A stretch of DNA of 64,000 nt from Escherichia coli (GTDB lineage Bacteria > Pseudomonadota > Gammaproteobacteria > Enterobacterales > Enterobacteriaceae), in the NCBI RefSeq assembly GCF_016026235.1, contig NZ_CP065613.1. One strand, 5' to 3'. The position numbers were made by a program, and so were the translations under genes. The first letter of the stretch is position 1. The number at the start of each line of letters is the position of its first letter. The notes below the pieces were generated by a model. It was not told the DNA's origin. It did not search any database and saw nothing but the letters and a program-made list of their open reading frames with translations. Positions 26,592-60,599 of the stretch are shown in pieces.

Positions 26592-26954
26592 ATGAAAGAA
26601 GTCGAAAAAAACGAAATCAAACGTCTCAGCGATCGTCTGGACGCCATCCGCCACCAGCAGGCCGATCTGTCGCTGGTTGAAGCCGCAGACAAATATGCCG
26701 AGCTGGAAAAAGAGAAAGCCACGCTGGAAGCAGAAATTGCCCGCCTGCGTGAAGTTCACAGCCAGAAACTGAGTAAAGAAGCACAGAAGCTGATGAAGAT
26801 GCCGTTTCAGCGCGCAATTACCAAAAAAGAGCAGGCTGATATGGGCAAACTGAAGAAAAGTGTTCGCGGACTGGTGGTTGTGCACCCAATGACCGCGCTG
26901 GGCCGCGAAATGGGCCTGGAAGAGATGACTGGATTCTCTAAGACTGCGTTTTAA
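26592..26954 (+). CDS. yibL: Conserved protein of unknown function (DUF2810-like), coiled-coil
   Basis: 120-aa ORF with a charged coiled-coil region; position matches yibL. Confidence 0.7.
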
Positions 26955-27018
26955 GCCCCTCAGACGATTGGTACGATCGTATCAACCCGCATCTGGCTTG
27001 CGTTAGCTGGTCAATGCG

Positions 27019-27028
27019 GGGACTCCCC
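27019..27028. repeat. Target-site duplication, left copy (GGGACTCCCC)
   Basis: Directly repeated at 28323..28332, immediately outside the IS terminal inverted repeats; a 9-bp TSD is expected for IS10-group elements, and the exact boundary is ambiguous by 1 bp. Confidence 0.7.
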
Positions 27029-28322
27029 CTGAGGGATCCCCAGAAAATTTAGTAAACCATTATCATATTGGTATACCGTTGCTGTAGAACTTTCAGCCCT
27101 GCGTCAAGTGACAGTGTGTTTAGTATGAGTGGAGAATGTCGAATCACATTCTCCGCCAGTTTTAATAACGAGATGACTCGCCTGTGCTTCACTGTATTTG
27201 CCTGATATTTATGATGTATCCCTTTGTTTTCCAGGCTGAAACCGCTTAACCACATAATGATACTGGCTAATGTTGCGATCAGACTCAATACCGTGACCCG
27301 CCCGGATGAATGACTGGCACCAAACCGTAGTCCAAATCCCCAGCGAGGATTTTTTTCATCCCTGAAATTTTGCTCAATTTGCATTCTACGGCTGTATAAT
27401 TTCATTACCTGTTTTGGCGAGAACTCAGTACTGTTTGTGAAAATAAACCATGGTGATTTCCCGGCAGTACGAGCTTTAGCCGTCACCGATGGTCTGGTTG
27501 CTCTTTCCTTCGAGCGTTTAAATCTACGACCTTTAGGCTTACTTTTATAAAGATAAAAATGCCCTTCATGTTGTGCATTTTTATCTCGACCCAGCAGGCC
27601 TTCACCTAAATAAATTGCTGTCGTTGATGCTTTTGTGCCTGAGTCCGACACCTTTTCCCAGCCATTACCAACATTGTAATAATGATTGCCCAGTACCCGG
27701 CAAATATAGGTCCAGCCACGGGAGCGGAGCTGTTGGAACCATCGCCCCTGAAAACCGGCATCTGTAATAACAATGACATCAGTCCCGGGGGAAAAGCACT
27801 CAGCAAGCGATTCCAGAAAACGCTCATGTACATCTGCATTCGCTGTCTGTGATGATGGAACGACACAACTCATCAACGGTAAAGAACGCCCGTCACATGC
27901 CAGGCTTGCCCGCAAAAGCTGAAAACGAGAGGCATGATAAGCACTCCAGTCAATGAGTATCACAACACGAGACATTCCCCGCGTAATCTTTTGGGTAATT
28001 CGCTGAAAAATGGTGGAAACCTCATTTTGCAAATGTCGATTCCCCAACAGTCGATCCACCCGCTTTATTTTGTTTTTAACTGATGCCGTACCGGTTAAAT
28101 GACGCCCGATACTGGTAAGTGTGAGGGAAGCGCCATTTATTACAGCATTAGTTGCGTCAATCAGTGATTTTTGACGGTAAAGATGCAAAGGGGCCAGTAT
28201 GTTGTTAAGGAAATTTTGGCATAATGAACGTGCAGGCATAGTGGTGATCTCCTTGAAATTGTTAGCACAATCAATTAGATCACATCTCACTATGCCTGTC
28301 TTGTTTTCTGGGGATTCCTCAG
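27029..28322 (-). mobile_element. IS10-like insertion sequence (IS4 family), apparently intact
   Basis: About 1.29 kb bounded by imperfect terminal inverted repeats (left CTGAGGGATCCCCAGAAAA…, right …TTTTCTGGGGATTCCTCAG) resembling IS10 ends (CTGATGAATCCCC), with a single transposase ORF and flanking direct repeats. Confidence 0.85.
27049..28239 (-). CDS. IS4-family (IS10-group) DDE transposase
   Basis: Protein aligns from MPARSLCQNF… with the IS10 transposase as I recall it (shared LTLT…GR…NKIKR(V/I)DRLLGNRHL, YSRRMQIEQNFRDEK, HKYQANTVKHRRVIS blocks). The start was trimmed to the Met preceded by a GGAG RBS. Confidence 0.85.
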   Translation of the reverse strand: MPARSLCQNFLNNILAPLHLYRQKSLIDATNAVINGASLTLTSIGRHLTGTASVKNKIKRVDRLLGNRHLQNEVSTIFQRITQKITRGMSRVVILIDWSAYHASRFQLLRASLACDGRSLPLMSCVVPSSQTANADVHERFLESLAECFSPGTDVIVITDAGFQGRWFQQLRSRGWTYICRVLGNHYYNVGNGWEKVSDSGTKASTTAIYLGEGLLGRDKNAQHEGHFYLYKSKPKGRRFKRSKERATRPSVTAKARTAGKSPWFIFTNSTEFSPKQVMKLYSRRMQIEQNFRDEKNPRWGFGLRFGASHSSGRVTVLSLIATLASIIMWLSGFSLENKGIHHKYQANTVKHRRVISLLKLAENVIRHSPLILNTLSLDAGLKVLQQRYTNMIMVY

Positions 28323-28332
28323 GGGACTCCCC
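28323..28332. repeat. Target-site duplication, right copy (GGGACTCCCC)
   Basis: See the left copy at 27019..27028. Confidence 0.7.
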
Positions 28333-28801
28333 TGTCTGCTCGCCTAATTACTGAACAATCCACTCCCTCTACATCAATTTACCGCTGGTTGATATTCTGA
28401 AAATGTATTTTCACCGAAATAGCAACCTATAAACAATAAAAATATATAGAAGATATCATTTGTTAATTAACAAGCATTTACGTCTCTTTTTTTCGGATTT
28501 AATTGTGAAATTTTAATCATCATATTCATAAAATCAATTATCCGTAAAAATTTTTCCAGATATGGTTTCTTCCATATTTGACATTTATTAATAATCATCA
28601 TTAGAATCCACGAAAAATAATATATTCATACAAACACAGACATATTTTGAAACGAATGATACATTTTTATGATGAATGCTTAAAACAATATTTAATCGAC
28701 ACCCATCACTGTCATTAATGTAAAGCAACATAGATCACCAATAATACAATGGACAACTCTACCGGCATTGATCGCTGGTCGGAGGCAATAAGGATTTTTA
28801 C

Positions 28802-29485
28802 ATGAACTTGAAGAAGATTTTTTTCAGTGCTGTCACTGTTTCAGTTCTCTGCACATTAACGGGATGTGACTACATTGAAGAAGGCAAGCCAGAAAGTAGT
28901 TTACTGAAACAACAAGAAGAACATAACAATAAAATTGAGCTAATTGAAAAACAACAAGCACAGCTAAAGAGTCAACTGGAAACTATTCAAAAACAACAAA
29001 CTGGCATAATAACCAGTACAAAGACTTTAACTCACGTAATTAAATCCGTTAAAGAACAACAAAACACTTTTATTTTTACCGAGTTTAATCCGGCAAAAAC
29101 GAAGTATTTCATCCTGAACAATGGTTCGGTGGCTTTAGCGGGCCGAGTGTTATCTATTGACGCAACAGAGAATGGCAGTGTTATTCATATTTCACTGGTC
29201 AACTTATTAAGTATACCAATCTCAAACATTGGTTTTAATGCGACATGGGGTGGTGAAAAACCTGTCGATGCCAAAGAGTTTGCCCGGTGGCAACAATTAC
29301 TTTTCAACACATCAATGAAATCCACATTGAAATTATTACCAGGTCAATGGCAAGACATTAATTTGACACTGAAGGGTGTATCGCCGAATAACCTGGGATA
29401 TCTGAAGTTAGCCATCAATATGGAGAATATTCAGTTTGACAACCTTCCCTCTGCTGAAAATCGGCAGAAAAGAAGCAAAAAATAA
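28802..29485 (+). CDS. SadB-like inner-membrane lipoprotein (putative trimeric autotransporter biogenesis helper)
   Basis: 227-aa ORF with a lipoprotein signal peptide and lipobox (…VLCTLTGC), followed by a Q/E/K-rich coiled coil. It sits immediately upstream of the adhesin gene, as sadB does with sadA in Salmonella. The gene is AT-rich. Confidence 0.6.
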   Translation: MNLKKIFFSAVTVSVLCTLTGCDYIEEGKPESSLLKQQEEHNNKIELIEKQQAQLKSQLETIQKQQTGIITSTKTLTHVIKSVKEQQNTFIFTEFNPAKTKYFILNNGSVALAGRVLSIDATENGSVIHISLVNLLSIPISNIGFNATWGGEKPVDAKEFARWQQLLFNTSMKSTLKLLPGQWQDINLTLKGVSPNNLGYLKLAINMENIQFDNLPSAENRQKRSKK

Positions 29486-29528
29486 ATGCAGCTTCTGCGC
29501 TTATATCAAGGAATAGAGAACATCATTA

Positions 29529-32500
29529 ATGAACAAAATATTTAAAGTTATCTGGAACCCTGCGACAGGGAATTATACTGTTACCAGCGAAACGGCAAAA
29601 AGCCGTGGTAAGAAATCTGGTCGCAGTAAGCTGTTAATTTCTGCCCTGGTCGCGGGTGGAATGTTTTCGTCGTTTGGGGCATTGGCGAATGCCGGGAATG
29701 ACAACGGTCAGGGTGTTGATTACGGTAGTGGATCAGCTGGCGACGGCTGGGTTGCTATAGGCAAAGGGGCGAAAGCAAATACTTTTATGAACACCAGTGG
29801 TTCCAGTACTGCTGTGGGTTATGAAGCTATAGCTGAAGGCCAATATAGCTCTGCCATCGGTTCAAAAACCCATGCGATTGGTGGTGCATCAATGGCGTTT
29901 GGGGTTAGTGCAATATCAGAAGGCGATAGAAGTATAGCACTGGGTGCCTCTTCGTATTCATTGGGCCAATACTCAATGGCCCTCGGCCGTTATTCAAAAG
30001 CATTGGGTAAATTGTCTATTGCTATGGGGGACTCTTCCAAAGCGGAAGGAGCAAACGCCATTGCGCTGGGAAATGCCACTAAAGCTACTGAGATTATGAG
30101 TATTGCTCTTGGCAACACCGCCAATGCGTCAAAAGCGTATTCAATGGCGCTGGGAGCAAGTAGCGTCGCATCTGAAGAAAACGCGATTGCCCTGGGGCGT
30201 AGCAGTGCAGCTAATGGTACTGACAGCCTCGCATTAGGCAGACTATCCGTCGCCAGCGCAGCAAACGCCATTACGATAGGTGCTGAGAGCAAAGCCGCTG
30301 AAAATGCGACGGCCGTTGGTACCAAAGCGGAGGCCAATGGACTTAATAGTATCGCGTTGGGCTCTGGGGGTATTGCAGATGCCGATAACACGATTGCTCT
30401 GGGCAATCAAAGCCTGGCAGTAGCTGCTGGTGCAATTGCCATCGGTCAGGGGAATAAAGCTGACGGCGCAAATGCTATCGCGCTGGGTAATGGTAGTGTT
30501 ACAGGTGGCGCAAATGCTATTGCTCTTGGACAAGGTAGTTATGCCGGTTTAGAAAATGGCATTGCAATTGGTGGTCAAGCCAGTGCTCAAGGGACAAATT
30601 CCGTTGCTCTGGGTGCGGGTTCTGTAGCGACTGAAGATAATTCCGTCTCTGTGGGTAACACAACAGATCAGCGAAAAATTGTCAATATGGCAGCAGGTGA
30701 TATCAGCACTAGCAGTACTGATGCCATAAATGGATCACAGCTTTATGCTATCAGTAAGTCAGTAGCGGACCGTCTTGGTGGGGGGGCTACCGTCAATGCG
30801 CAAGGTGTCGTTACTGCCCCGAATTACAGACTGAAAAATGGTATTTATGGCAATGTTGGCGATGCTTTAGCGGATCTAAACAATAACACGATACAATGGG
30901 ACTCCGTTAAAAAGGGATATAGTGCGGCACATGGTACAGATGCCACCAGCACCATCACCAACGTTAAAGCCGGCACTATTTCTGCTACCAGTACGGATGC
31001 GGTTAACGGTTCCCAACTGAAAGCTACCAATGACGATGTCGAAGCCAACACCGCCAATATCGCTACTAATACCAGCAACATTGCCACGAATACGGCAAGT
31101 ATTGCCACCAACACCACCAATATCACCAACCTGACGAATTCCGTTGGTGACCTTAAGGATGATGCCCTGCTGTGGAATGATGCTAAAAATGCATTCAGTG
31201 CAGCTCACGACCAGGATACCACCAGCAAAATCACCAACGTTAAAGATGGCGACCTGACGGCTGGCAGCACCGATGCCGTTAATGGCTCTCAGCTGAAAAC
31301 CACCAACGATGCCGTGGCGACGAATACCACCAATATCGCCACTAACACTTCCAATATTGCCACTAACACTTCCAACATCTCTACCCTGACTGAGACGGTG
31401 ACTAATCTTGGTGAGGATGCGCTGAAATGGGATAAGGACAGTGGTGTCTTCACGGCAGCACACGGCACCGAGGCCACCAGCAAAATCACCAACGTTAAAG
31501 ATGCCGACCTGACGGCTGACAGCACCGATGCCGTTAACGGCTCTCAGCTGAAAACCACCAACGATGCTGTGGCGACGAATACCACCAATATCGCCAATAA
31601 CACCTCCAATATTGCCACTAACACCACCAACATCTCTAACCTGACTGAGACGGTGACTAACCTTGGTGAAGATGCGCTGAAATGGGATAAGGACAATGGT
31701 GTATTCACGGCAGCTCATGGCAACAACGCCACCAGCAAAATCACCAACGTTAAAGATGGCGACCTGACGGCTGGCAGCACCGATGCCGTTAACGGCTCTC
31801 AGCTGAAGACCACCAACGATGCCGTGGCGACGAATACCACCAATATTGCCACTAACACCACCAACATCTCTACCCTGACTGAGACGGTGACTAATCTTGG
31901 TGAGGATGCGCTGAAATGGGATAAGGACAATGGTGTATTCACGGCAGCTCATGGCAACAACACCGCCAGCAAAATCACCAATATCCTGGACGGCACAGTC
32001 ACTGCAACCAGTTCCGATGCCATTAACGGCAGCCAGCTTTATGACTTAAGCAGCAATATCGCCAGCTACTTCGGCGGCAACGCTTCTGTGAATACTGACG
32101 GTGTGTTTACCGGTCCAACCTACAAAATCGGTGAAACAAATTATTATAACGTCGGCGATGCACTGGCTGCGATTAACTCCTCATTTAGCACGTCTCTCGG
32201 CGATGCCCTGCTTTGGGACGCTTCCGTAGATAAATTTAGTGCCAAACACGGTACTAATGGTGACGCAAGCGTGATCACTGATGTCGCAAACGGGGATGTT
32301 TCAAGCACAAGCTCTGATGCTGTGAACGGCTCGCAACTCTATACCACCAATAAGTACGTCGTAGATGCGCTGGGTGGTGGTGCCGAAGTCAATGCTGACG
32401 GCAGCATCAGTGCGCCGACTTACACTATCGCAAACGCAGATTACGATAATGTCGGTGATGCCCTGAATGCTATCGATACCACTCTTGATGACGCTCTGCT

Positions 32501-34625
32501 CTGGGATGCAGACGCCGGTGAAAATGGTGCATTTAGCGCCGCTCACGGAAAAGATAAAACTGCCAGTGTAATCACTAACGTCGCTAACGGTGCAATCTCT
32601 GCTGCCAGCAGCGACGCGATTAACGGCTCACAACTCTATACCACCAATAAGTACATCGCTGATGCGCTGGGTGGTGACGCAGAAGTCAACGCTGACGGCA
32701 CCATCACCGCACCGACTTACACCATTGCGAACGCCGAGTACAACAACGTCGGTGACGCCCTGGATGCGCTTGATGATAACGCCCTGCTGTGGGATGAGAC
32801 TGCCAACGGCGGTGCTGGAGCCTACAATGCCAGCCATGACGGTAAAGCCAGCATCATCACTAATGTCGCTAATGGCAGTATTAGTGAGGACAGCACCGAT
32901 GCAGTGAATGGTTCTCAGTTGAATGCGACGAATTTGATGATTGAGCAGAACAGCCAAATCATCAATCAGCTTGCTGGTAACACCGACACAACCTATATCG
33001 AAGAAAATGGCGCTGGTATCAACTACGTTCGTACTAACGACAACGGTTTAGCCTTTAACGATGCAAGCGCCTCTGGTGTCGGCGCTACAGCTGTAGGTTA
33101 TAACGCTGTCGCGTCTGGTGCCAGCAGCGTAGCCATTGGTCAGAACAGCAGCAGCACCGTTGATACCGGTATTGCGCTGGGTAGCAGCTCCGTTTCCAGC
33201 CGTGTGATTGCCAAAGGTTCTCGTGATACCAGCGTGTCAGAAGAAGGTGTTGTGATTGGTTATGACACCACGGATGGCGAACTGCTCGGTGCATTGTCGA
33301 TTGGTGATGATGGCAAGTACCGTCAAATTATCAACGTAGCCGATGGTTCCGAAGCCCATGACGCCGTTACGGTTCGCCAGTTGCAGAACGCTATTGGAGC
33401 GGTCGCCACTACGCCAACCAAGTACTATCACGCCAACTCAACGGCAGAAGACTCACTGGCCGTTGGTGAAGACTCGCTGGCAATGGGTGCGAAAACTGTC
33501 GTTAATGGTAATGCAGGTATTGGTATCGGTTTGAACACTCTGGTTCTGGCTGATGCGATCAACGGTATTGCTATCGGCAGTAACGCACGCGCAAACCATG
33601 CAAACAGTATTGCAATGGGTAACGGTTCTCAGACCACCCGTGGTGCACAGACTGGCTACACCGCCTACAACATGGACGCACCGCAGAACTCTGTAGGTGA
33701 GTTTTCTGTCGGTAGTGAAGACGGTCAACGCCAGATCACCAACGTCGCAGCTGGTTCAGCGGATACCGATGCGGTTAACGTGGGTCAGTTGAAAGTCACT
33801 GATGAGCGCGTAGCGCAAAATACCCAGAGCATTACTAACCTGAACAATCAGGTCACTAATCTGGATACTCGCGTTACTAATATCGAAAACGGTATTGGCG
33901 ATATCGTGACCACCGGTAGCACCAAGTACTTCAAGACCAACACCGATGGCGTAGATGCCAACGCCCAGGGTAAAGATAGCGTTGCGATTGGTTCTGGTTC
34001 CATTGCTGCCGCTGACAACAGCGTCGCTCTGGGTACAGGCTCCGTGGCCAACGAAGAAAACACGATCTCTGTGGGTTCTTCTACCAACCAGCGCCGTATC
34101 ACCAACGTAGCTGCCGGTGTTAATGCCACCGATGCGGTTAACGTGTCGCAGCTGAAATCTTCTGAAGCAGGCGGCGTTCGCTACGACACCAAAGCGGATG
34201 GCTCTATCGACTACAGCAACATCACTCTCGGTGGTGGCAACGGAGGTACGACTCGCATCAGCAACGTTTCCGCAGGTGTGAACAACAACGACGCGGTGAA
34301 CTACGCGCAGTTGAAGCAAAGCGTGCAGGAAACAAAGCAATACACCGATCAGCGCATGGTTGAGATGGATAACAAACTGTCTAAAACTGAAAGCAAGTTG
34401 AGCGGTGGTATCGCTTCTGCAATGGCAATGACCGGTCTGCCGCAGGCTTACACTCCAGGTGCCAGCATGGCTTCTATTGGTGGCGGTACTTACAACGGTG
34501 AATCGGCAGTTGCTTTAGGTGTATCGATGGTGAGCGCCAATGGTCGTTGGGTCTACAAATTACAAGGTAGTACCAATAGCCAGGGTGAATACTCCGCCGC
34601 ACTCGGTGCCGGTATTCAGTGGTAA
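29529..34625 (+). CDS. ehaG: Trimeric autotransporter adhesin (YadA-like head, repetitive stalk, C-terminal YadA anchor); EhaG/UpaG-like
   Basis: 1698-aa ORF with the extended TAA signal peptide ([18 protein letters not shown]…), a head of repeated GxxAxAxG/SIALG motifs, neck motifs (NSVSVG…[10 protein letters not shown]…DAVNVSQL), DALLWD…FSAAHG stalk repeats and a C-terminal anchor ending …AALGAGIQW. The symbol is assigned by locus position between yibL and lldP; upaG is equally possible. Confidence 0.85.
30890..32040 (+). repeat. Tandem 240-252-bp coding repeats inside the adhesin stalk (about five near-identical copies)
   Basis: Unit …[17 protein letters not shown]…[42 protein letters not shown]… recurs with unit starts at about 30893, 31160, 31417, 31669 and 31909; degenerate copies continue to about 32800. 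Confidence 0.85.
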
Positions 34626-55820: not shown

Positions 55821-56963
55821 TTATTCAAACCAATTATGAATAACCTCTTCGAATCTTTGAGTTACGCCATCCCAACTGTAGTGATTAAACACAAAGTCCT
55901 GACCTTGCTTTGCAACTGCTGTTAATTCAGGATTCGCTAACGTTTTTAAAATATCGCTGCTTATGGAGTCTGCAGTCATAGGTTCTTTTAAATGGAATCC
56001 CGTAGTATTTTCTTTGACAAATTCCGTCATCCCCCCACGCGTACTCACTAAAACAGGCTTACCAGCACCCATAGCTTCAATTGCCACCATGCAAAATGGT
56101 TCCTGGAACTGGGAAGGAATGACGACTAAATCTGCCAGTGGGTAATAACAATGCATCTTTTCAGGCGGTATGCTTCCTAACATAATGCAACGATCCTTCA
56201 AACGTTTTGCAATTTCCCTGACATTGCGTTGATATGCACCTTTGTCACTTTTACTCATTTCTGTATAATCACCAATCACAACTAATTTTAAATTTTTGTG
56301 AGCAGCGGCCAATTTTTCGAATGATTGCATCAACAGCAATATGCCTTTGTCAGGGACGATACGCCCAGCATAAAAAATAATTTTCTCTTCAGGGGAGATA
56401 TTAAGTTCGCTTCTAGTGATCGGCTGAAAATTAGATTGATAGGTTTCTAAATCAATTCCATTTGGTACAATCTCAATATCTGCATTTGCTAAATAAGATT
56501 GGTAATACTTTTTCAAGTATAAACTAGGCACTATCATTTTAACATTTTGCTCAAGCAATTTTGGTTCAAATGCATTATGCATATGTATAACCACTCTTGC
56601 CTGAGGAGCTCGCTTACGAATTTGAGTGTATAGCTTCATGCTATTATGAACTACAATAACACTTTCTTTCGTTATAGGAAAATCATGTGCAATATTCAAT
56701 ATTCTCTGTGAATATGGAAGAGGATCAAGTCTTGTCCATTTTTGAAATAACCGCTTATATATGCGACTGAATCCAACCCTATGAATACTACAATTATCAT
56801 TAACAAAGGTGTAATTTGAGTATCCTGGATTTTTGATACAAACAATACGATTTGGAAAATTGGTACGCTGAGCAACCTGATACATCCACGTTTCAACAGC
56901 AGCCGCTCCGCGAGGAGGAATTGAAAAAATAGGAGTAACCGTAAATATTATTTTATCAACCAT
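55821..56963 (-). CDS. waaD: GT4-family LPS outer-core glycosyltransferase (WaaD/WaaK-like)
   Basis: 380-aa ORF with a GT4 C-terminal motif (…FQEPFCMVAIEAMGAGKPVLVSTRGGMTEFV); the symbol is inferred from R3-type gene order only. Confidence 0.6.
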   Translation of the reverse strand: MVDKIIFTVTPIFSIPPRGAAAVETWMYQVAQRTNFPNRIVCIKNPGYSNYTFVNDNCSIHRVGFSRIYKRLFQKWTRLDPLPYSQRILNIAHDFPITKESVIVVHNSMKLYTQIRKRAPQARVVIHMHNAFEPKLLEQNVKMIVPSLYLKKYYQSYLANADIEIVPNGIDLETYQSNFQPITRSELNISPEEKIIFYAGRIVPDKGILLLMQSFEKLAAAHKNLKLVVIGDYTEMSKSDKGAYQRNVREIAKRLKDRCIMLGSIPPEKMHCYYPLADLVVIPSQFQEPFCMVAIEAMGAGKPVLVSTRGGMTEFVKENTTGFHLKEPMTADSISSDILKTLANPELTAVAKQGQDFVFNHYSWDGVTQRFEEVIHNWFE

Positions 56964-56971
56964 CTCGTATA

Positions 56972-57985
56972 TTAACCTTTCATAACATTATATTTAATTG
57001 CTGTAAAAACACCATCGAGAAATTTTTTCTGGTAAAGCAAGTGTTTATATTTTTCTTTGTACTCATGTTTTTTAACAGCTTTTTTATAAGGTATATTTCT
57101 CCATGGTGATATATTATAAATATTACGAAAATAATCTGCAGAGGCGTAGTTCGCCCAATCATGCCATGGCTTAGTTATACCAGTATAATGTATGAAGACA
57201 GTGTCATCATTAATAAACCGGGTGTAATATTCACTATTTTTTTCTTCAAATTCTGACTTTATAGTATAAATACAATTATATTTTCTCGGTAATATTTTAG
57301 CATGATGTAGAAACATTAAGTTTAAAATATCTTGATCCGGGTACTTTAATTTTTTTATAATTGACTCATCTGATAATAGATCAAAGAATTTTTCCGTTAG
57401 TCTTTGTTTTAACCATTCCCGTAAATTAATATACATTACACCAGAGTTAAAATAGCTACCGTTAAAATCCTCATTACACAAACGCTCAGCGCTTTTACTT
57501 TGCATAGCATCTACATCAATTACCACTGCCCCATATTCATCTTTAAACTCTAATGCTATTAACTCGTTCAATGAACCCTTACAGACGATATCAGCATCAA
57601 GATATAATAATGAATCCAATCGCGCAGAAAAATAATCAAATGAAAGCAAACGATAATAAATAGATACTGGCCAGATATTTGATTGAGGTAGCGCCTTCAA
57701 TGGCTCAGAATCAATATGATATAATTTAATTACTGTTTGATACTTCGTTGCTAATTGTGATAATAATTCAATATACTCTTTGTCTAAGTAATCAGCGATT
57801 ATGTGAAAGGTAAATTTGTTTTGTTTATTATTTTCAAGAATTGAAGCAATTGAAATCGCAGCCCCAACCTGGTAGTTCTCATCAATACCCCATGAGACAT
57901 TAAACGTTTCCCGTTCATCAAGTTTAACGGGGCGCTTGTCCAGTTCAATTATATCTTTAAATTGAGTAAGATGTTTAAAATCCAA
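56972..57985 (-). CDS. waaJ: GT8-family LPS outer-core glycosyltransferase (WaaJ-like)
   Basis: 337-aa ORF of the GT8 family (DxD-containing), paralogous to 58743..59750; symbol by gene order. Confidence 0.6.
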   Translation of the reverse strand: MDFKHLTQFKDIIELDKRPVKLDERETFNVSWGIDENYQVGAAISIASILENNKQNKFTFHIIADYLDKEYIELLSQLATKYQTVIKLYHIDSEPLKALPQSNIWPVSIYYRLLSFDYFSARLDSLLYLDADIVCKGSLNELIALEFKDEYGAVVIDVDAMQSKSAERLCNEDFNGSYFNSGVMYINLREWLKQRLTEKFFDLLSDESIIKKLKYPDQDILNLMFLHHAKILPRKYNCIYTIKSEFEEKNSEYYTRFINDDTVFIHYTGITKPWHDWANYASADYFRNIYNISPWRNIPYKKAVKKHEYKEKYKHLLYQKKFLDGVFTAIKYNVMKG

Positions 57986-58009
57986 TTTAATTACCCTTCA
58001 TCATAATCA

Positions 58010-58717
58010 TTATTTGCTCTTCAATCCTAGTTTGACTTTTACATCCCTGATTACTTTTTTAATTTTCTTTTTGAATATAAGATATGTATAGCCAAAGTCT
58101 TTCAATTCATTTTTTATATTATAGTGCCGTTCAAGATCAATGCGATCTTTTGCTTTTAAAACAGCGGTTGTTTTTTTACCTGAAAGGTCAATTAGTCTTA
58201 AACCTTTTTCGGATACTATAAAATTTCCTTTATGAGGATCGCCAGACACCATTCCATGCTGATGCAACTCTTTTATCGATTCTGATAATTGATCCTTCAG
58301 ATCTTCAGAAATTTCCAAATACTCATTTAACCCGACACCTTCAATATACTCAATGAGCATAATATAATAATGAGCGAAATTTAATGTTTTACGTTCAGCT
58401 AGCAAAAAATAGTCATTAATTGATTGGATGCCTTCACCACGTACCCGATCGGTTTGATAAATTAAATTTTCATAATAATCTTTTTTTATGCAAGATTTTA
58501 AGAAACGTTCGGTCATTTTATGCTTTGGCGCATAAACTTTAAGTACAAGAGGTCCACGAGCAGTGTCAATAAGAATGACTTTAGTATCATCAATAGAACG
58601 AAAAACTTTTAATGTTTTAACCCTGCAAGTTAAAAAGTCATTTAGAACTTGCTCATAAAAGGGATCATTATCTTTTATGAAAACTTTCAACCCATTTATC
58701 GTTTTATTATATATCAT
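58010..58717 (-). CDS. waaY: LPS core heptose(II) kinase
   Basis: 235-aa kinase-like ORF (…HQHGMVSGDPHKGNFIV…) between two GT8 genes. Confidence 0.75.
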   Translation of the reverse strand: MIYNKTINGLKVFIKDNDPFYEQVLNDFLTCRVKTLKVFRSIDDTKVILIDTARGPLVLKVYAPKHKMTERFLKSCIKKDYYENLIYQTDRVRGEGIQSINDYFLLAERKTLNFAHYYIMLIEYIEGVGLNEYLEISEDLKDQLSESIKELHQHGMVSGDPHKGNFIVSEKGLRLIDLSGKKTTAVLKAKDRIDLERHYNIKNELKDFGYTYLIFKKKIKKVIRDVKVKLGLKSK

Positions 58718-58742
58718 AATGAATTATTTTAACCTTAAATCT

Positions 58743-59750
58743 TTAGAAGCATTTTTCTTTATAATACTTTAAATAATTAAAAATGCCTGCCATATAATGC
58801 TTTTGTTTAAATTTATGTTTTGCACAATACCGATACTGATTGCTATTTACAGGTTTAAGTAAATCTTCTTTACTCCACGGAGAAGCTGCTTTGGCGATCA
58901 AAAAACTACGTGACACCGGATAGTCAGCCCACTCATGCCAGGGTTTTGTAGGTCCCACATAGTGTATAAACACGGTGTCATCATTGACTGGATTATCAAC
59001 TTTGTCTTTTAATTCATAGTTAATACTATATCGGGTATTATATTTCTCCGAAATAAACTTCACTTTACCATTCAATAATACATTCAGTACATCTTGATCA
59101 AGGTGGGTGATTTTACTTACCCAATCTGGGTCACGCAACATTTCAATAGCTTTTGACGAAATATTATTTAGATTCCACTCATCAATATTTATCAGTAAAA
59201 AACCAGCATTGAAATATCCAGAAGCTAACTGTGGTGTAGTTAATACCGAGGCTCGATTTTGCCACCATTCAACATCTCTTTCAGCTACAACTGCGGCAAT
59301 TTCATTAGTAGAAAATTGATAATCTAAGAGTTCTTTAATACTACCCTTGCAAGCAATATCTGCATCAAGATATAGTATTTTTTCATGTTTATGATAGAAA
59401 TAATCTGCAATTATAAATCGAAAATATGTTGCGTAAGTCCAGTTTTTCGTGCTTGGTAATGACTTCAGCTTATCACAATTGATAACATAAATATTAATTC
59501 TTGAATTATATTGTTTTGCCAAATCAGAAAAATATAATTTGTCTTTATCACTGATATAATCTGTGAAAACATGAAATTCACAAGAGATTTCTCTATTGTT
59601 TAATAGAATAGATGCGATGGCTACACCACATCCAAAAAGAAAATTTCTGTCAATACCAAATGCTATATCAAGAGTATTTTTAGATCTTATATTTTGATAA
59701 TGAAAATTATACTCAAAAAGGATGATGTCACTATCATTGAGTTGAGACAT
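58743..59750 (-). CDS. waaI: GT8-family LPS outer-core glycosyltransferase (WaaI/WaaO-like)
   Basis: 335-aa ORF of the GT8 family; symbol by R3-type gene order. Confidence 0.6.
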   Translation of the reverse strand: MSQLNDSDIILFEYNFHYQNIRSKNTLDIAFGIDRNFLFGCGVAIASILLNNREISCEFHVFTDYISDKDKLYFSDLAKQYNSRINIYVINCDKLKSLPSTKNWTYATYFRFIIADYFYHKHEKILYLDADIACKGSIKELLDYQFSTNEIAAVVAERDVEWWQNRASVLTTPQLASGYFNAGFLLINIDEWNLNNISSKAIEMLRDPDWVSKITHLDQDVLNVLLNGKVKFISEKYNTRYSINYELKDKVDNPVNDDTVFIHYVGPTKPWHEWADYPVSRSFLIAKAASPWSKEDLLKPVNSNQYRYCAKHKFKQKHYMAGIFNYLKYYKEKCF

Positions 59751-59792
59751 ATTTATTCTGTATCCAAAATTTTGGCAAAAATAAGTTACGGG

Positions 59793-60599
59793 TTACAACG
59801 ATTTTCGAATCGTTCTTTCCCTGATTTTTGTGGCTTTTGCTTCTGCTTGCGACAGCAGTCCTTGTTCCTGCTTGAGAATGTCTTTAAGCGGGGCGGCAAA
59901 ATACACCTTCATAAAGCGCCAGATATCCCGCTGAGTCAGGCCAATATTCATTGAAGAAAAATAAAGCCCTATAAGATCTTTATCGCGCCAACGACGTGGA
60001 ACGCGCGTGCGAAGCTGCGCCCGGTGTAGGTCAATTACCGAAATTTTTAACTCCTCTTCCTTACCGGAAAAAGGCAAGTGCAGCAGGAAATGACAGATAT
60101 AACAGTCACGATGGTTAATGCCCGCAGCATGCATATCGCGCACCATCGTCGCGACACGCTTAATAAGCATACGCTTTACGCGAACATCTGGTGGGTTGGT
60201 CGCCCAGTCAGCACAGTAATCTTCCAGACTGATGGTTGGTGTCAGATCTTCGGTAATAATAAACGAGGTTCTGGTCAGCGGATTCATGCCTTTTTCGCCG
60301 AATGCCACCCCATACATAGTATCAACGCCGACATCCCGCAGTCGATGAATCGCATTCCATTCGCGGTCTGCGCCTAATACTGGCATCCGCAATGAGAGTA
60401 AATTTTTGATTATCTCTTTCAGGGTCGTGCCGCGATGCCATTTGAGAAAATAGCTTTTGCCCGCCATTTCAAAGCGCAGAGTACGGCGAGTTTCCAGTTC
60501 ACGAAATACCTCACCCTGCAAGGTTTTAACTTCCTCAAAAGGATCTTTGCCGCGCCATAACGTGGCAAACGGCTCTTTAAGTTCAACCATCCAGACCAC
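59793..60599 (-). CDS. waaP: LPS core heptose(I) kinase
   Basis: 268-aa ORF starting [33 protein letters not shown]…, matching WaaP. Confidence 0.9.

Follow-up and report, generated by a model that had tools for sequence, protein, structure and literature searches.

A sadB-type lipoprotein gene upstream of an EhaG-type trimeric autotransporter adhesin gene in Escherichia coli, a probable counterpart of the enterobacterial sadBA operon

Our analysis covered a 64,000-nt stretch of Escherichia coli DNA (contig NZ_CP065613.1 of assembly GCF_016026235.1; hereafter the window) and centered on a lipoprotein gene, the DNA that precedes it, and the adhesin gene that follows. The gene order in the window is mtlR-yibT-yibL-(IS)-sadB-TAA-lldP, in which IS is an insertion sequence and TAA stands for trimeric autotransporter adhesin; the coordinates of all features are collected in Table 1. 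The sadB-type open reading frame starts with ATG, is preceded by a Shine-Dalgarno sequence (AAGGA at 28790-28794, 8 nt 5′ of the start codon), and lies on the same strand directly 5′ of the adhesin gene, between the mtl and lld operons. The gene was found in 4151 of the 5426 complete genomes of E. coli in the collection, where RefSeq mostly names the same CDS "DUF3251 domain-containing protein" and lately "SadB/YajI family lipoprotein". Within E. coli, the gene falls into two deep allele classes, with 95-99% versus approximately 76% nucleotide identity and 97% versus 66% protein identity to the window copy, and these classes track EhaG-type and UpaG-type adhesins.

The downstream open reading frame encodes an adhesin with the Pfam domains ESPR, YadA_head, YadA_stalk, and YadA_anchor. 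It is 99.9% identical to the orthologue of strain FDAARGOS_943, 80% identical to an EhaG so named in RefSeq, and 68% identical to UpaG of Nissle 1917. Because it is 82 residues longer than EhaG of SC407 while sharing 80% identity with it, we regard the adhesin as an allelic variant of EhaG. SadA of Salmonella is the positional orthologue of both UpaG and EhaG (PMC11054257).

Upstream of the pair, and outside it, lies a copy of the IS4-like element ISEc60, bounded by 19-bp inverted repeats (18 of 19 positions matching) and by a 10-bp target duplication, GGGACTCCCC, at 27019-27028 and 28323-28332, so that position 28333 is the first base past the duplication. Its transposase (NCBIfam IS4, E=1e-107; named ISEc60 in RefSeq) is transcribed away from sadB. 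The empty site is present in FDAARGOS_943 and SC407, and the ISEc60 junction was found in no complete E. coli genome of the collection. An outward IS promoter directed toward sadB was considered and set aside, given the lack of a plus-strand promoter-like site near the right end of the element and the orientation of the transposase.

Table 1. Features of the sadB-adhesin locus and its upstream DNA (positions in the window)
Feature	Position	Strand	Basis or remark
ISEc60 (IS4-like), outside the sadB-adhesin unit	27029..28322	-	1294 bp, inverted repeats, target duplication
AT-rich intergenic region; predicted promoter of the sadB-like gene and its 5′ leader	28333..28801	+	composition
Predicted sigma-70 promoter, TTGACA-18 nt-TAGAAT	28578..28607	+	11/12 consensus positions
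sadB orthologue CDS	28802..29485	+	227-aa inner-membrane lipoprotein precursor (predicted); match to PDB 4C47 and RefSeq annotation
Predicted lipoprotein signal peptide (aa 1-21), lipobox LTGC, Cys22, Asp23 (+2)	28802..28870	+	PROSITE-type rule
Predicted coiled coil, ~aa 32-88, Gln-rich core	28895..29065	+	heptad register, AlphaFold2 helix
Predicted C-terminal beta-sandwich, aa 93-206, YajI/DUF3251-like and MATH-like	29078..29419	+	AlphaFold2, Foldseek
sadB-adhesin spacer, 43 nt	29486..29528	+	stop-to-start distance
1698-aa trimeric autotransporter adhesin, EhaG/UpaG/SadA positional group	29529..34625	+	Pfam, identity

The first-pass annotation of this DNA had compared the lipoprotein with Salmonella SadB and called for an alignment of the two. 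A phmmer search of all PDB chains returned a single match, 4C47 (E=1.3e-67; residues 30-227 on 10-207), the crystal structure of Salmonella SadB, whose entry title reads "inner membrane lipoprotein", and a MAFFT alignment gave 52% identity across the whole mature protein. The similarity is thus significant and full-length, and on these sequence comparisons the 227-aa protein is an orthologue of SadB.

The features that define SadB can be followed along the E. coli protein. Its N-terminus (MNLKKIFFSAVTVSVLCTLTGC, followed by D) conforms to the PROSITE-type lipobox rule, with Cys22 and an aspartate at +2, and the triplet G21-C22-D23 was kept in 12 of 12 full-length homologues aligned, in agreement with the LTGC lipobox read earlier from the sequence. 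In SadB, the lipid is attached to Cys22, and the inner-membrane location predicted from the aspartate at +2 was later confirmed in fractionation and mass-spectrometry experiments (Grin et al. 2014, J Biol Chem 289:7388, PMC3953254). By analogy, lipidation on Cys22 and retention in the inner membrane through Asp23 are predicted for the E. coli protein. The Q/E/K-rich heptads that had been noted were also recovered: one dominant register runs through residues 30-92 as nine heptads (a = EQIQLQTIQ, d = LHILIILVF), and 45% of residues 30-87 are Q, E, or K. Register and pattern match those of SadB (a = VQIQIQTVQ, d = MQLQLIVVF), including four glutamines in one core position of the coiled coil, and the SadB crystal structure contains a coiled coil of nine heptads with many glutamine core residues (PMC3953254).

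Structural modeling extended this correspondence to the C-terminal half of the protein. The AlphaFold2 model, computed as a monomer and of moderate confidence (mean pLDDT, 71.8; mostly 80-90 within the beta-sandwich part), consists of a signal-peptide helix, a single long helix at residues 32-88, and a strand-rich part at residues 93-206 with a short helix at 157-164. Foldseek against the PDB placed three chains of 4C47 on top (E=3.5e-20), then YajI (2JWY; E=6.6e-4) and, lower down, weak matches to the MATH domain of SPOP and to TRAF domains. Within the limits of this moderate-confidence model, model and matches together indicate an eight-stranded beta-sandwich of YajI/MATH-like topology; the beta-sandwich of SadB likewise has the topology of YajI and resembles MATH domains (PMC3953254). 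SadB is a trimer in the crystal and a monomer in solution (PMC3953254), and the E. coli protein may, by analogy, form a homotrimer.

The pairing of the two genes was traced across 12 loci, comprising three E. coli alleles, Escherichia sp., Pseudocitrobacter corydidari, P. vendiensis, Citrobacter braakii, Enterobacter wuhouensis, and an assembly labelled Salmonella enterica; a profile search of genome contigs with the protein alignment yielded 10 loci. The lipoprotein gene lies between yibL and a long TAA gene, followed by lldP, in all 12, and no terminator was predicted between the two genes, in keeping with the proposed two-gene unit rather than a lone adhesin gene. The gene also occupies the position that had been ascribed to it by reference to sadB and sadA, 43 nt before the TAA gene and between the mtl and lld operons, which is where the lipoprotein gene of Salmonella sadBA is found upstream of its TAA (Grin et al. 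2014, PMC3953254). A 2026 survey counted 106 SadB homologues beside TAAs, in Enterobacterales only. Three of the 10 contig-search loci, from metagenome bins labelled Bacillota, Oscillospiraceae, and Collinsella, were not counted toward the taxonomic spread; their sequences share 65-96% identity with E. coli, so mis-binned Escherichia contigs are the most likely source.

A horizontal origin had been suggested for the locus, and the evidence does not bear it out. The same yibL-lldP site is occupied in Escherichia, Pseudocitrobacter, Citrobacter, Enterobacter, and the assembly labelled Salmonella enterica, and the absence of the locus from K-12 has been read as a deletion (PMC3953254). A horizontal island would be expected to show a patchy presence at variable sites, or flanking mobility genes or a tRNA, together with absence from related genera; the locus does not fit this description, and the sole mobile element nearby is the strain-specific IS. 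Given the synteny of the locus in several enterobacterial genera, its description as horizontally acquired is unsupported. The low G+C of sadB (37%) and of its leader is the only pointer in that direction. Between the two E. coli allele classes, divergence is confined to a block that opens at the yibL stop codon and reaches the adhesin passenger domain; identity is 95-97% for yibL, the adhesin anchor, and lldP.

The DNA upstream of sadB is markedly AT-rich. Positions 28333-28801 (469 nt) contain 70.4% A+T, and the core at 28400-28700 contains 77.1%, compared with a window mean of 50.6% (sd, 7.3). The earlier estimate of about 75% therefore fits the core and lies approximately 5 points above the value for the whole region. 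Only 71 of 6354 windows of the same size (~1%) were equally AT-rich, most of them in a separate block at 56.9-59.9 kb. In 11 of the 12 loci, the 480 nt upstream of the gene contain 66-72% A+T, against a locus background of 47-51%. The phasing that had been described for the A/T tracts was weak. The power of AA/TT dinucleotides peaked at 10.25 bp, a modest periodicity; of 500 shuffles that preserved dinucleotides, 0.4% equalled it within the 10-11.5 bp band and 5.4% did so when all scanned periods were considered. The 13 tracts of at least four A or T, a slight excess over the shuffles (10.0 +/- 2.2), were themselves unphased at 10, 10.5, and 11 bp (Rayleigh p, 0.6-0.9).

Within this region lies the predicted sigma-70 promoter, the best sigma-70-like site within 26900-29700. 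Ten of the 12 loci carry a motif of the form TTGACA-17/18-TA(G/A/C)(A/C)AT between 193 and 225 nt 5′ of the ATG, even though the intergenic DNA of the window and of Nissle 1917 is only ~56% identical. Since the motif is kept despite this divergence, a transcription start near 28614 is predicted, which implies a 5′ UTR of approximately 190 nt. A structured 5′ UTR was looked for and rejected (RNA fold of 28614-28830; z = -0.38, non-significant), and a search of 26900-29700 against Rfam gave a lone match to a miRNA family at E=0.88 and nothing credible. An inverted repeat, CAGATATGG-N6-CCATATTTG (28557-28580), which overlaps the -35 element and was scored as "terminator-like", was dropped as a candidate operator because it is absent in the Nissle allele.

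AT-rich, TpA-rich DNA is the type preferred by H-NS, and work by Totsika and colleagues is said to have found raised levels of EhaG and UpaG in hns mutants. The DNA around the predicted promoter is of this type: TpA steps have a density of 0.100 in the region versus 0.051 in the window, so that the 300-nt core combines 77% A+T with twice the TpA density of the window. The H-NS motif TCGATAAATT, allowing at most two mismatches, occurs at four sites in 28333-28801 (8.5 per kb versus 1.2 in the window). Motif count and TpA density are both compatible with H-NS binding, and both follow largely from base composition. Silencing by H-NS through 28333-28801 is plausible. The region might alternatively be plain AT-rich intergenic DNA with a 5′ UTR, free of specific H-NS silencing, with expression under the control of other regulators or of the IS inserted in this strain. 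The motif count that follows base composition and the lack of phasing among tracts whose number is near the shuffle expectation would fit such a scenario, as would the ISEc60 copy, which ends at 28322, 255 bp before the predicted -35 element, and might change the nucleoid-protein context locally. Against it stand the H-NS-preferred character of the core and the conservation across genera of the AT-richness of the region but not of its sequence. Statements in two papers citing Totsika et al. 2012 (AEM 78:2179), which describe UpaG as repressed and trimeric autotransporters as regulated by H-NS, point the same way. We therefore consider a promoter region without specific H-NS silencing rather unlikely and retain H-NS silencing as the plausible reading.

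The spacer between the two genes proved to be unexpectedly constrained in some alleles. Its length is 43 nt in 11 of the 12 loci and 41 nt in the remaining one, and the copies of the window and of Nissle 1917 share 95% identity over it, compared with 65-75% for sadB itself. Among four diverged loci, the spacer together with the opening ~35 nt of the adhesin gene shows 90-93% invariant columns and forms the most conserved stretch inside the divergent block. The SC407 allele of E. coli carries several substitutions in the spacer, and Citrobacter braakii retains its length of 43 nt with an unrelated sequence. A structured RNA at this position was also considered and rejected (fold of 29460-29570; z = -0.17, non-significant). 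The conservation is a minor curiosity that possibly reflects ribosome-binding constraints or recombination. That the spacer and the first ~35 nt form a functional cis element, which could, for example, set the SadB:adhesin translation stoichiometry or couple the translation of the two genes, and, separately, that ISEc60 perturbs H-NS silencing, are proposals that we regard as improbable.

The conserved spacer also bears on the question of a single transcription unit. The two genes might be adjacent and independently expressed, with an adhesin promoter within or after the lipoprotein gene, and a spacer and gene start far more conserved than the flanking coding DNA could be taken for a regulatory element of the adhesin gene. 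A simple scan found no terminator-like or plus-strand promoter-like site separating the genes in 28838-29639; 28802-29528 contains no plus-strand promoter-like site, and the spacer contains no terminator-like site. In addition, the spacing is constant at 43 nt across genera, loss of the locus removes both genes at once, and Grin et al. called sadBA an operon on equal grounds (PMC3953254). Independent expression is accordingly very improbable, and we infer that sadB and the adhesin gene are co-transcribed.

The annotation of the lipoprotein as a DUF3251 protein raises the question of its relation to YajI. It scored 16.7 bits against Pfam DUF3251 (PF11622; cut-off, 23; E=0.007) and 18.2 bits against the NCBIfam YajI equivalog PRK11530 (NF008575; cut-off, 158; E=0.0013). 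Because both scores fall far below the curated cut-offs, the protein is, by sequence, a distant paralogue of YajI and not a YajI orthologue. SadB and YajI are themselves paralogues with approximately 14% identity, and yajI lies in a conserved locus of its own, between yajC-secDF and nrdR and without linkage to an autotransporter (PMC3953254). The view that the lipoprotein is a YajI-type (DUF3251) paralogue with an adhesin-unrelated function and an incidental position could draw on the prevailing RefSeq label, the two weak family matches, and a fold resembling YajI 2JWY, but it is essentially refuted by the sub-threshold scores, by 52% identity to SadB against 14% between SadB and YajI, by the separate yajI locus, and by the presence of a TAA gene 41-43 nt downstream at every one of the 12 loci.

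Taken together, 28333-34625 is very probably the form that the enterobacterial sadBA operon takes in E. coli, in which a SadB-type helper is paired with an EhaG-type adhesin. In the mechanism that we propose, the sigma-70 promoter in the AT-rich region would give rise to a bicistronic sadB-adhesin transcript, and the repression by H-NS that has been reported for UpaG, and for trimeric autotransporters in general, would be likely to act on the promoter region. Sec would export the SadB-type precursor, Cys22 would receive the lipid, and the aspartate at +2 would hold the protein in the inner membrane, facing the periplasm. At the local concentration reached in the membrane, the lipoprotein may trimerise through its weak, Gln-rich coiled coil, nine heptads long, which would carry three MATH-like beta-sandwich domains. 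By analogy with Salmonella SadB, these domains might transiently engage three unfolded, repetitive adhesin chains at their exit from the Sec channel, so that adhesin export would be synchronised and out-of-register association of the repetitive stalk prevented. The outcome would be more adhesin, and adhesin of better quality, displayed on the cell surface.

The role on which this proposal draws, that of an inner-membrane lipoprotein aiding display of its partner adhesin, had been put forward in the first-pass annotation and agrees with Grin et al. 2014 (PMC3953254). In Salmonella, the presence of SadB made surface SadA 4-6-fold higher and increased its protease resistance, and a direct SadB-SadA interaction was not demonstrable (PMC3953254). 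A helper function can be transferred from SadB to the E. coli protein by analogy. Since our literature search found no study with an experiment on the E. coli SadB protein, its function is assigned by orthology only.

Comparison with known systems places the locus closest to Salmonella sadBA. The lipoproteins share a lipobox at Cys22, the aspartate at +2, a Gln-rich coiled coil of nine heptads followed by a beta-sandwich, and 52% identity, and in both organisms the lipoprotein gene lies 43-44 nt before a long ESPR-bearing TAA gene between the mtl and lld operons. In contrast to Salmonella, the adhesin in the window is EhaG-type (1698 aa) and not SadA, and the window strain carries ISEc60 upstream. 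The locus resembles that of EhaG and UpaG in its chromosomal site and in the identity of its downstream gene (80% and 68%, respectively), and the H-NS repression stated for these adhesins in papers citing earlier work would fit the AT-rich upstream region. YajI (PDB 2JWY, DUF3251) is likewise a lipoprotein, a paralogue of SadB with the same beta-sandwich topology (Foldseek E=6.6e-4), but it shares only ~14% identity with SadB, its family profiles score below threshold here, and it is encoded at another locus without an autotransporter. TpgA of Acinetobacter, which assists the TAA AtaA, is the one further protein described as aiding TAA display from a gene beside that of its TAA; it is unrelated, consisting of BamE-like and OmpA-like peptidoglycan-binding domains that act at the outer membrane and peptidoglycan, unlike an inner-membrane coiled-coil lipoprotein.

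Grin et al. 2014 (PMC3953254) had already described the gene pair, with its organisation as an operon, its structure, and its function, and the feature is named in RefSeq. The adhesin family was published in 2008-2012, and the significance of the present analysis beyond correct annotation is small. The CDS, for which "DUF3251 domain-containing protein" is still the prevailing label, can be given the annotation of sadB orthologue. For studies of EhaG or UpaG, or for uses of these adhesins in surface display in E. coli, the upstream lipoprotein gene should be included.

Our allele comparison (window positions 26955-34625 against the Nissle 1917 locus) revealed two deeply diverged alleles within E. 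coli, the diverged block extending from the yibL stop codon to the passenger domain of the trimeric autotransporter adhesin (TAA). Between these alleles, the sadB products share 66% amino acid identity and the intergenic sequences approximately 56% nucleotide identity, and the genes flanking the block are 95-98% identical.

The most conserved stretch of the sadB-adhesin locus was found at the junction of the two genes, where 90-93% of positions were invariant among four diverged loci, versus 50-70% in the sadB C-domain. In 11 of 12 loci the two genes are separated by a 43-nt spacer; these loci include C. braakii, whose spacer is unrelated in sequence. The conserved junction stretch showed no significant RNA structure.

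Features of the sadB-adhesin region and its surroundings
Feature	Window position	Description
Target duplication	27019-27028 and 28323-28332	GGGACTCCCC, 10 bp, bordering the ISEc60 copy
ISEc60 (IS4-like) insertion	27029-28322	1294 bp; 19-bp inverted repeats
Inverted repeat	28557-28580	CAGATATGG-N6-CCATATTTG; shares bases with the -35 hexamer of the predicted promoter
Conserved stretch	29474-29563	sadB 3' end, 43-nt spacer and start of the adhesin gene (~35 nt)
Second AT-rich block	56890-59860	at least 70% A+T across ~3 kb

The ISEc60 copy has the sadB promoter region on one side and yibL on the other. None of the complete E. coli genomes in our collection shares its junction, and the near-identical strain FDAARGOS_943 carries approximately 30 ISEc60 copies, all at other sites. 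The scan flagged the inverted repeat as terminator-like; the Nissle allele lacks this repeat.

Contigs carrying sadB and a TAA gene also occurred in three metagenome bins labeled Bacillota, Oscillospiraceae, and Collinsella (L008, L011, and L013), with 65-96% identity to the E. coli protein. These are most likely mis-binned Escherichia contigs; a real occurrence outside Enterobacterales, as the labels would imply, is less favored.

The allele class tracks the adhesin type (EhaG-type versus UpaG-type). Together with the near-identity of the flanking genes, this indicates at the sequence level that the predicted periplasmic helper encoded by sadB diverges jointly with its surface-exposed adhesin partner.
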